Shown: positions 21,407 to 23,724, counted from the first letter of the stretch. The stretch is DNA of 64,000 nucleotides from a virus (IMGVR_UViG_3300015214_000001:64001-128000); one strand, 5' to 3'. Notes: generated from the sequence alone by a model not told the origin. Made by a program: numbers and translations.

Positions 21407-21910
21407 TTAGTCTTTGGCGCGTTCGTATTTATAGACAGGATTTCCAGAACGTCCACGGATGTACGTCCAGAAATATTTACCTTTACTATCAGCATCTTTC
21501 ATGCCATTGAAAACACTCACAGGCACGTCAAAGTAGATATAAGTTACTCCACCTTTAACGAATTTTACAGTCAGGGTTTTAATCTTTGGTGAATAAGCGA
21601 CACTTTCCACCATCGAACTGTTCCTGACATCAAACGACATAACCTGTGTCTCTGATCGTTTTGGCAAACGGTTGCGGAAAAAATCTCGCAACTTGGTTAT
21701 GATTGACTCTAAACCAGGTATGCCCATACTCTTTACGCTTTTGTTTGCGCCAACAACAAGGTCATACACATCAGTAACCCTATAGTTAGCTGTTGGCTCA
21801 AAGTCATTGAACTGAGGCTCTTTTGACTTTGCCTTTAATTCTACATCTTTTTTGACATCACTCAAACTATTTACTCCTGCTAATTCTAAAGTCTTTTGTG
21901 TTAGCTTCAT
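21407..21910 (-). CDS. KTSC domain protein
   Basis: NSSMVESVAYS..TLTVKF..G.TYIYFDVP....M..ADSKGKYF..YIRG. Confidence 0.85.
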   Translation of the reverse strand: MKLTQKTLELAGVNSLSDVKKDVELKAKSKEPQFNDFEPTANYRVTDVYDLVVGANKSVKSMGIPGLESIITKLRDFFRNRLPKRSETQVMSFDVRNSSMVESVAYSPKIKTLTVKFVKGGVTYIYFDVPVSVFNGMKDADSKGKYFWTYIRGRSGNPVYKYERAKD

Positions 21911-22150: not shown

Positions 22151-23257
22151 ATGGATTTAGAAAGTTTAAAGATTTTACAAACGCTTACAGATAATGAGCG
22201 TTTAAATGCGCGTGAAGCTGCGGCTCGCGTGATTGTTCGGATGGCAGGTGAACCACCAACGCGCGACAAATTTACGAATGCTCAATCCGCGTATCCAGCG
22301 TGGTTTAGTAAGTTCGTTGTTGTGTTGATGGCGGTTGTTTTTGTTGCATCAGCGATGCCTAGTCTTTTTCGTGTCTTTACAGCAGGGCGTGACCATTTTC
22401 AAGATAGCATTACAACATATAGAATAGATGAAGCCACATTGAACCTGCTTGATGAAACGTTAATTTCACAAAGTGACCAACAACAAGCTACCCCAAGCCA
22501 TATCGCTTTGCAAGGAGCAATTGTTGGCATCAGCACATTTTTACTATCTGAGTTCTTGATTATCTTATCTGTGATCGTAGCGAATGTCTACTTCACTGGT
22601 AAGTTCAGGCTTGTGTTTATTATTCCTGTATCAATGGGTTTAGCTATCGCATATGTGGGAAACTGGACGGTAACGCGACCAAATGATTTGTTTGGTTGGC
22701 TTGAAACCATCATACCGCCGACTGCGGTATTATTCTTAGGTTTTATTGGTGAACGTCTTGTGCTTGATAGTATTCAAACTCGCCACGCCAACGAAGTTGC
22801 ATATCAGGAAGCGTATCAAGCATACCAAGCAATCGCCACAGAGCCTGAAAAATCGCCAGAGTGGTTGCCACGATATGCTAATGCTTTGAAAAATGCTCTA
22901 ATAGATGCAAATAAAAAAGGTCAGGGCGCGACAGCACGCATGAATTTGATGAATACGCTTACATCGAGAGAATGGAGCTATTTAGTTAAGAGAGAACTGG
23001 AAGAACTAAACTGGTATTCTACAATCCAAGTTGAATCTCCACCAACACAACAAGCACCAATGCCTGCTATTGAAGAAGAAAAATCATCGTCGCCCTTATT
23101 AGAAACTACACCAACGCCTATTGTTGATGTAGTTGTCGAAATGGAATCGCCGTTGCCATTTGATGCTAACGAAAAACAAGAATCTTCTAATGGTGTTTCT
23201 TTATTATCTGATGAGCAAAATATTCCCGAAGGTGATGATGCCATAAACCCTACGTAA
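22151..23257 (+). CDS. four-TM membrane protein; probable -1 frameshift extension to 23673
   Basis: Hydrophobic segments and an acidic Pro-rich tail; A_AAC_CCT heptamer just before the stop. Confidence 0.75.
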   Translation: MDLESLKILQTLTDNERLNAREAAARVIVRMAGEPPTRDKFTNAQSAYPAWFSKFVVVLMAVVFVASAMPSLFRVFTAGRDHFQDSITTYRIDEATLNLLDETLISQSDQQQATPSHIALQGAIVGISTFLLSEFLIILSVIVANVYFTGKFRLVFIIPVSMGLAIAYVGNWTVTRPNDLFGWLETIIPPTAVLFLGFIGERLVLDSIQTRHANEVAYQEAYQAYQAIATEPEKSPEWLPRYANALKNALIDANKKGQGATARMNLMNTLTSREWSYLVKRELEELNWYSTIQVESPPTQQAPMPAIEEEKSSSPLLETTPTPIVDVVVEMESPLPFDANEKQESSNGVSLLSDEQNIPEGDDAINPT

Positions 23258-23294
23258 GCGGCACGGGAGATCGCAACCCTGAACCCGTGTCCGC
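23245..23294 (+). other. programmed -1 ribosomal frameshift signal
   Basis: X_XXY_YYZ heptamer AAACCCT (23245-23251), 6 nt spacer, stem GCGGCACGGG / CCCGTGTCCGC. Confidence 0.7.
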
Positions 23295-23673
23295 TAATGT
23301 AGAAGGGCTAGACTTCGTAGATGAAGAAAGGAAAAAAGAAATGAAATGGGAAAAAGTATGGAATGATGGTTTGAATCTCAGGTCACGCGAATATTTAAAT
23401 TGGCTGATGAGCGATGGCGCAAATGATGAAGCAGGAGTTCCTTATATGAAGCGCCTAACATCAGAAAAAAGTGGTCTATCAATTAGAAAATTAGTGGAGA
23501 TTATGAAAAATAATAATGTGGATGCAACCGTATCCACCGTTAATCGCTTCTTAGGAATTTTGAATACAAGGGGCTATGATAGATATATTAAAATGCGTGC
23601 TGATGAAGAAGGTCGTGATTTATCAGAGTTATTTGATAACTACAGCCAAAGAAAACTTGACAACAAATGGTAA
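23287..23673 (+). CDS. HTH-like domain, likely the frameshifted C-terminus of the 22151 protein
   Basis: GLSIRKLVEIM..ATVSTVNRFL; frame open from 23239; no RBS before the GTG. Confidence 0.6.
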   Translation: MSANVEGLDFVDEERKKEMKWEKVWNDGLNLRSREYLNWLMSDGANDEAGVPYMKRLTSEKSGLSIRKLVEIMKNNNVDATVSTVNRFLGILNTRGYDRYIKMRADEEGRDLSELFDNYSQRKLDNKW

Positions 23674-23724
23674 GTAACATTTGAACTACAGCGCTTGTCA
23701 TGTATAATAGTTATGACAAGCGCA

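Follow-up and report, generated by a model that had tools for sequence, protein, structure and literature searches.

The question raised by this locus is whether the gene at positions 22,151 to 23,257 (forward strand) gives one protein or two. Its reading frame, ORF1, encodes a product of 368 residues, and the 3' end of the frame reads GCC ATA AAC CCT ACG TAA, in which a candidate slippery heptamer stands just before the stop codon; a second frame, displaced by -1, continues past that stop to position 23,673. The window, i.e., the whole stretch of DNA that was analysed (64,000 nucleotides), corresponds to bases 64001-128000 of a virus record that is complete (208,458 bp, with direct terminal repeats) and has a GC content of 39.5%. 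On the comparison with related loci described below, we consider it likely, and well supported, that programmed -1 frameshifting in this phage gives both the 368-residue protein and a 507-residue protein that carries an additional C-terminal domain.

ORF1 and its genomic surroundings

ORF1 was delineated from the ORF list, its homologs, an AlphaFold model, and a hydropathy analysis. Four hydrophobic segments (residues about 46-78, 118-150, 151-172, and 187-205) are present in both the hydropathy profile and the model, which bears out the preliminary description of this product as a four-TM membrane protein. In the AlphaFold model (mean pLDDT of 75), an N-terminal cytoplasmic helix is followed by four transmembrane helices and by a helical cytoplasmic domain (about residues 238-285), which is confidently modelled. 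Residues 290-368 are predicted to form a disordered tail, as expected of a linker. The distribution of Lys and Arg residues, with a K/R-rich N-terminus and an acidic first loop, suggests an N-in/C-in topology, in which both ends of the protein are probably cytoplasmic.

A total of 56 homologs of ORF1 were found, including its own entry; the 55 others are metagenomic, with E-values of 1e-46 to 1e-93, identities of 36-55%, and lengths of 248-395 residues. The family alignment (A1) contains 26 invariant columns and the conserved motifs PSLFRLFTAGRDYF, STFLLAEFLIILS, and GNW..P.D.F.WLE. By its significant full-length similarity and these motifs, ORF1 belongs to an unnamed four-TM family. Searches of Pfam and PHROG with ORF1 returned no family, and its model matched no PDB entry at an E-value of 0.001 or better; blastn and tblastn searches against GenBank phages and PLSDB plasmids gave no match, and a pattern scan of IMG/VR found no relatives. 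The product is best read as a four-helix protein of the inner membrane, and its family occurs in phages and in elements that carry an integrase.

The surroundings of ORF1 consist of replication and nucleotide-metabolism genes, i.e., those for RNR, ThyX, a Toprim/DnaB-like primase-helicase, a RadA/KaiC-like ATPase, and Pol III alpha, together with a CCA-adding-enzyme-like gene. ORF1 is flanked by a KTSC-domain gene and by replication genes (RadA/KaiC-like, primase-helicase, ThyX, and Pol III alpha), and a tyrosine integrase gene is located farther along. In the relatives, the ORF1-family gene adjoins primase or helicase genes and very often has a tyrosine integrase gene directly downstream (L002, L005, L006, L007, L016, L019, and L022). 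Four of the relatives' loci derive from Chloroflexota MAGs.

The candidate frameshift signal in the window

The slippery heptamer A_AAC_CCT (23245-23251, forward strand) covers Asn366 and Pro367, and its AAC and CCT are 0-frame codons, which is the correct phase for an X_XXY_YYZ motif. Up to position 23238 the -1 frame is blocked by TGA TGA; from 23239 to 23673 it is open, with 140 codons past the shift. The 0-frame stop codon TAA (23255-23257) lies within a 6-nt spacer, after which a stem-loop with a 16-nt loop (23258-23294), the candidate stimulator, begins. In the stem, GCGGCACGGG (23258-23267) pairs with CCCGTGTCCGC, i.e., CCCGTG(U)CCGC (23284-23294), to form a GC-rich helix of 10 bp with one bulged U, and folding with RNAfold shows that the hairpin can be extended by an outer helix to 23250-23302. 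The preliminary description had reported the phased heptamer, the GC-rich stem at this spacing, and the extent of the -1 frame, and each of these was found again as described.

The stability of this region was compared with that of shuffled, local, and genomic controls. The 106 nt from 23240 to 23345 fold at -32.6 kcal/mol, compared with -19.9 +/- 3.2 kcal/mol for shuffled sequences (z = -4.0), and none of 200 shuffles equalled this value. None of 533 local controls is as stable as the 45-nt segment that starts 6 nt past the heptamer, and 0.15% of 45-nt segments genome-wide reach the same stability. A further element, absent from the preliminary description, is the internal SD-like sequence AAGGTGAT (23229-23236, forward strand), which is located 8 nt upstream of the heptamer and is a candidate upstream stimulator of frameshifting. 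Its duplex with the 3' end of the 16S rRNA has an energy of -10.0 kcal/mol, a value within the best 0.9% of the ORF1 control positions. The window accordingly carries a full dnaX-like three-part signal, consisting of an SD-like element, a heptamer, and a stem-loop.

Recoding structures usually start 5-8 nt downstream of the slippery site, and SD-like elements stimulate bacterial -1 shifting (PMC4066793). CCN A-site codons are on average poorer shifters in E. coli than AAN or UUN codons, and the all-pyrimidine CCU is among the better CCN codons (PMC4066793); the weakness of CCN A-site codons is a point against the proposed shift, but it fits a need for stimulators. Strict in-frame heptamers account for 0.5% of the codons in the long ORFs of the genome (317 in 62,577), which corresponds to a chance of about 2.5% for a heptamer in the 5-codon overlap, and the window's heptamer, given the residues that it encodes, is expected from codon usage at about 3%. 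Only 2 of the 317 heptamers in the 208-kb genome are accompanied both by such a structure and by a -1 frame that extends at least 40 codons past the stop. One is the ORF1 site; the other is located at genome position 144,682-144,688, and PHROG annotation of this second site gave no match.

Heptamers, stimulators, and tails of the relatives

DNA was obtained for 23 homolog loci, comprising 20 loci with a separate tail and 3 with an in-frame tail. The 20 separate-tail loci represent 16 clusters below 70% identity, and in every one of them the -1 frame has no stop over the 3' end of the gene and a strict 0-frame X_XXY_YYZ heptamer is found inside the -1 overlap, usually 0-3 codons past the opening of the -1 frame. 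The remaining 6,342 codons of the same ORFs contain only 11 heptamers, a background of 0.17% per codon. Combined naively over the loci, the probability of the heptamers is 10^-12.7, a value that is not a true p-value because of the shared ancestry of the loci. Seven types of heptamer occur (C_CCT_TTT, A_AAC_CCT, A_AAC_CCC, A_AAT_TTT, C_CCA_AAA, C_CCT_TTA, and T_TTT_TTA). C_CCT_TTT is found in seven loci and additionally in L021, where it overlaps two others; A_AAC_CCT is shared by the window and six loci (L006, L007, L010, L018, L019, and L021), and the heptamer of L015 is AAACCCC, located at the opening of the -1 frame.

The probability of the heptamer given the encoded residues, as calculated from codon usage, is 0.1-12% per locus, so that the conservation of the heptamer sits at synonymous sites. 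The tail regions of the three homologs with in-frame tails (L013, L026, and L027) contain no heptamer, and numerous stops interrupt their -1 frame, as would be expected of a heptamer whose sole role is to give access to the tail. The preliminary description had made its reading depend on conservation of the signal in homologs; the signal is kept in all 20 loci, and A_AAC_CCT, the 6-nt spacer, and the stem-loop recur together in the closest relatives. The signal, its phase, and its conservation are thus shown by comparison. The heptamer of the window follows an "NG" motif, whereas in L009, L010, and L018 the heptamer precedes "NG"; the positional homology of the cassette therefore rests on shared nucleotides and not on the protein alignment.

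Two kinds of stimulator are distributed among the heptamer subgroups. In the AAACCCY/AAATTTT subgroup (the window, L006, L007, L009, L010, L015, and L018), a stem-loop is located 5-6 nt past the heptamer, and each of these stem-loops is among the top 0-4% most stable segments of its own locus. The stem sequences differ between loci and the spacing is kept, as seen in the window (GCGGCACGGG/CCCGTG.CCGC), L010 (GCGGAACTG/CAG.TTCCGC), L015 (GCGCTC.../GAGCGC), and L019 (GCCCTG/CGGGGC). The stem base AGCGG...CCGCTA is common to the window and L009/L010/L018, and from this common base their cassettes look homologous. In most of the relatives, the stem lies within codons of the 0 frame, so that it cannot act as a terminator there. 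Per-locus folding of the CCCTTTT subgroup showed no such downstream structure, and these loci often have an SD-like GAGGTG 11-13 nt upstream instead. Over all 20 loci, the anti-SD pairing upstream of the heptamer is in the top 10% of control positions in 11, where 2 would be expected. Alignment of eight cassettes with MAFFT and RNAalifold gave no consensus structure, as the loop lengths differ and the 3' arms are unaligned; the structural argument is built on per-sequence folds and locus-internal controls, and not on a formal count of covariation.

The tails encoded in the -1 frame (alignment A2) have an invariant W, P, GR.R, and R, with the consensus PFW.YSP..GRPR.H.D....QRAYRQR.R; the basic tail type can be written W..P..GRPR..RQRAYR. 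These tails mostly lack a start codon, and an ATG is absent from those of the GRPR type. As only three codons separate the opening of the -1 frame from the conserved PFW in L001 and L005, the shift in these two loci can be placed at the heptamer. In L009, L010, L016, L017, L018, and L019, the tail motif is located beyond the 0-frame stop and is thus not a shadow of 0-frame coding. The differences between L009 and L010 within the tail motif are mostly synonymous. By these patterns, which comparison brings out across the loci, the -1 frame of the relatives' tails is coding. The 0-frame "PFG" and "NGNG" were also considered as selected motifs and were rejected, since the -1 motifs persist past the end of the 0 frame; judging from the alignments, "PFG" and "NGNG" are shadows of the -1-frame PFW and RQRQR.

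Other tails are of different types. A treble-clef-like zinc ribbon is encoded in the -1 frame of L006, L007, L015, L021, and L023, and in L006, L007, and L015 it is also preceded by an SD sequence and an ATG. The proteins of the three homologs with in-frame modules, whose DNA lacks the heptamer in the tail, are P0053 and P0042, which have a zinc ribbon, and P0055, which has an HTH (weak GntR/ParB-HTH/HTH_11 matches).

ORF2, rival readings, and known systems

In the window, the -1-frame linker YVSGTGDRNPEPVSANVEGLDFVDEERKKE (23251-23340, forward strand) lies in an open frame that would be translated only after a shift, and its opening residues, KPY.SGT, agree with those that follow the shift in L010, L018, and L009. 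The linker leads to the ORF2 domain (23341-23673, forward strand; LSIRKLVEIMKNNNVDATVSTVNRFL), which has 110 residues counted from its ATG and is predicted to be all-helical and HTH-like by its pattern and a low-confidence model. The predicted trans-frame product consists of 507 residues, with the junction ..AINPYVSGTGDR and the ORF2 domain as its C-terminal module. The single-sequence AF2 model of ORF2 (pLDDT of 52, low confidence) contains six helices at positions consistent with an HTH; compared with 48,161 chains, it gave a best Z-score of 4.2, which is non-specific, and no fold match.

An exhaustive HMMER search of 1.8 billion representatives yielded, besides ORF2 itself, no more than two LysM repeat proteins, both judged spurious. 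Pfam and PHROG searches with ORF2 gave no match even at E-values up to 5, the sole sequence likeness was a sub-threshold one to a TALE repeat, and the ESM Atlas feature search (score of 0.78) was uninformative. A kinship of ORF2 with the in-frame HTH tail of P0055 was considered, and no relation was shown (BLASTP, E = 0.4). With 23 Lys and Arg residues versus 25 Asp and Glu residues, ORF2 is not basic overall, unlike the tails of the relatives. Judged by its sequence, ORF2 is an orphan that is unrelated to those tails.

The preliminary description had stated that no ribosome-binding site precedes the GTG of the -1 frame. This holds, as the GTG at 23287 has no SD sequence, but the ATG at 23341 has the SD-like AAGGA 8 nt upstream (23328-23343 including the ATG, forward strand), a possible independent start of ORF2. 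Such a motif precedes 8% of random ATGs versus 59% of the first ATGs of long ORFs. Since ORF2 has its own SD and ATG, the fusion is not needed for its expression. A free ORF2 may be made from this ATG as well, a duality also suggested by the sequences of L006, L007, and L015.

It could accordingly be proposed that the two frames are ordinary genes, with ORF2 made only from the ATG at 23341, and that the cassette is an inherited relic that works negligibly or not at all. The frequency of SD-like motifs before true starts given above, the start signals before the zinc ribbons of L006, L007, and L015, and the occurrence of at least 34 open codons upstream of the ATG in about 10% of genes agree with this proposal, as does the lack of relationship between ORF2 and the relatives' tails, by which the original tail would have been replaced. 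In a relic, however, a GC-rich stem of 10 bp, which stands in a genome of 39.5% GC and is free of the constraint of 0-frame coding, would not persist exactly 6 nt from a heptamer that is still intact, nor would the SD-like element upstream have been preserved as well. The -1 frame also runs through the junction without a stop, in the phase that a shift requires. In addition, independent initiation and frameshifting are not mutually exclusive. We consider the proposal unlikely.

Far less probable is that the hairpin has no part in recoding and serves between the genes as a terminator, as a site for RNase III or other processing, or as a stability element, and that the heptamer is coincidental. 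The stem-loop does lie just past a stop codon, which is a common place for terminators and processing hairpins, but no T-run follows the stem (the sequence there is TAATGTAGAAGGGC), the terminator scan made no call, and a scan for sites between ORF1 and ORF2 found nothing promoter-like or terminator-like. Furthermore, the stem-loops of L006, L007, L009, L010, L015, and L018 are inside 0-frame coding sequence at the same 5-6 nt spacing, and the low chance frequency of a heptamer in the overlap also speaks against coincidence. Hardly any weight can be given to the idea that a single in-frame gene was split by one wrong base in sequencing or assembly, or by an indel of recent origin: although in-frame fusions exist in the family (P0053, P0042, and P0055), the runs at the site are only 3 nt and not error-prone, 20 independent assemblies have the same -1 arrangement with seven different heptamers, and the record is a complete genome with terminal repeats. 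Two other mechanisms were dropped, i.e., transcriptional slippage, as the runs are only 3-4 nt, and a +1 shift at the CCC codon, as the frame relation is -1 in all loci.

Under programmed -1 frameshifting, the preferred reading, most ribosomes would terminate at the TAA and release the 368-residue protein, and a fraction would be held up by the hairpin while tRNA-Asn and tRNA-Pro occupy AAC and CCT. These tRNAs would slip back to AAA and CCC, and the shifted ribosomes would cross the 30-residue acidic linker into ORF2 to give the 507-residue protein with an added helical C-terminal domain. We infer both the occurrence of the shift in this phage and its rate. In the resulting protein, a membrane anchor whose ends are cytoplasmic would be joined by a disordered linker to a sub-stoichiometric tail that resembles a nucleic-acid binder. 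We further infer that the appended module binds nucleic acid, by analogy, because the relatives have basic GRPR tails, zinc ribbons, and an HTH. A fixed minority of the membrane subunits could then, in replication or integration, serve to tether DNA or RNA to the membrane or to sense it there. Bacillus phage phi29 p16.7 is a membrane-anchored DNA-binding protein that organises phage DNA replication, with one TM helix and no frameshift. It shares with the tailed ORF1 a phage membrane anchor and a putative cytoplasmic DNA-binding C-terminal domain near replication genes, and on such background comparison it is possibly the nearest functional analogue of the tailed ORF1.

More tentatively, the whole family might be a modular recoding system, in which a membrane anchor gains interchangeable nucleic-acid-binding tails (basic GRPR/RQRAYR, zinc ribbon, or HTH-like) almost always by -1 frameshifting. 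As stimulator, an SD-like element upstream and a hairpin downstream would replace each other, and the ratio of tailed to untailed subunits would be fixed in a membrane complex that tethers or senses the DNA of the element during replication, integration, or the lysis-lysogeny choice. If true, such a family would be a previously unrecognised class of phage membrane-DNA anchors with stoichiometry set by recoding. A membrane anchor with a putative sub-stoichiometric nucleic-acid-binding arm would offer a handle on the function of an otherwise opaque family.

The mechanism itself is canonical; what is new is the gene family and its modular, swappable tails. The arrangement resembles that of E. coli dnaX (tau/gamma), in which an X_XXY_YYZ heptamer is preceded at about 8-10 nt by an internal SD-like element and followed after 5-6 nt by a stem-loop. 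The two differ in outcome, as the shift in dnaX leads to early termination and a shorter product, whereas that in ORF1 would bypass the stop and add 140 residues; the heptamers (A_AAA_AAG in dnaX and A_AAC_CCT in ORF1) also differ, and the protein families are unrelated. As in the tail assembly chaperone G/GT of phage lambda, infrequent -1 shifting close to the 3' end of the upstream ORF would give a C-terminal extension in a fixed ratio. The G/GT analogues are conserved over very divergent phages while the heptamer varies (PMC5009743), and the ORF1 family likewise has its seven types. The known phage frameshift cases are tail assembly chaperones and some structural genes (PMC5009743). On the other hand, ORF1 is a 368-residue four-TM protein in a replication and integration neighbourhood and not a small soluble chaperone between tail and tape-measure genes, and the modules appended in its family look like nucleic-acid binders.

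The OrfA-OrfAB transposase of IS3/IS911 is similar in that -1 frameshifting, stimulated by an SD-like element and a structure downstream, fuses a DNA-binding module with a second domain in a mobile element (PMC4066793). In that system the order is the reverse, with the HTH first; ORF1-ORF2 has no transposase domain, and its upstream partner is a membrane protein. The comparative evidence presented here is similar in strength to that for textbook phage frameshifts and concerns an uncharacterised membrane family of the replication/integration module. With seven heptamers, two kinds of stimulator, swappable tails, and in-frame fusions that lack the signal, the family is a natural experiment on the evolution of frameshift signals. 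At the level of annotation, the -1 tails are currently missed by gene callers or wrongly called as separate genes.

C-terminal ends of the ORF1 family

For the family of ORF1, the four-TM membrane protein, both the gene predictions and the protein-database entries give the 0-frame ends ..PFG....NGNGxx as the C-termini, as seen in the tail regions of the relatives' loci L001-L005, L011, L014, and L022. These ends of approximately 35 residues are mostly an out-of-frame shadow of the conserved basic tail in the -1 frame, and the C-terminus of the ORF1-family database entries is therefore probably mis-annotated.

In the closest relatives, the invariant Trp codon of the -1 frame is overlapped by an ATG in the +1 frame, from which ORFs extend at L009:3890-4040, L010:2137-2290, and L018:1606-1752. 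This frame, MAT(T)ERQRKAFKRW..., continues without a stop codon into the gene that follows, and across approximately 12 codons its changes look synonymous; the frame may represent an overlapping gene or mere chance. In another relative, L015, in which the -1-frame tail is a zinc ribbon, a second, similar zinc-ribbon ORF (MSKTKTKQLFTGKGNPNRTKKCEHCSNSFRTRNPNKKYCSRDC..) is located 3' of the first in another frame (L015:3553-3800), and the tail module is thus duplicated in tandem.

ORF2 and the flanks of the ORF1-ORF2 unit

Residues 41 to 74 of the HTH-like ORF2 (window 23461-23562), SGLSIRKLVEIMKNNNVDATVSTVNRFLGIL, resemble one TALE repeat (..GLTPEQVVAIASNNGGKQALETVQRLLPVL). Only the summing over repeats brings the E value for the whole protein to 0.006, and the single matches are each far from significant.

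A perfect 11-bp inverted repeat, GCGCTTGTCAT / ATGACAAGCGC (window 23691-23723), begins 18 nt past the ORF2 stop codon and could be a terminator of the ORF1-ORF2 unit. Its loop contains TATAAT, and a promoter-like match, TTGAAC-N16-TATAAT (window 23681-23708), overlaps the repeat. On the other side, ORF1 is adjacent to a divergently oriented gene on the minus strand (window 21407-21910) that encodes a KTSC domain (PF13619, E = 4e-16).

A second frameshift-style site in the same phage

Outside the window, the same phage carries another site of the ORF1-like style on the minus strand (L025:1383-1389, corresponding to bases 144682-144688 of the whole genome), where the heptamer C_CCA_AAC lies immediately 5' of a TAG stop codon and is followed by a strong stem-loop (-25.6 kcal/mol over 70 nt). 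A PHROG search with the ORF that carries this heptamer gave no match. The ORF is approximately 140 amino acids long, and 145 further codons are open in the -1 frame; these sizes suggest a tail-chaperone G/GT pair.
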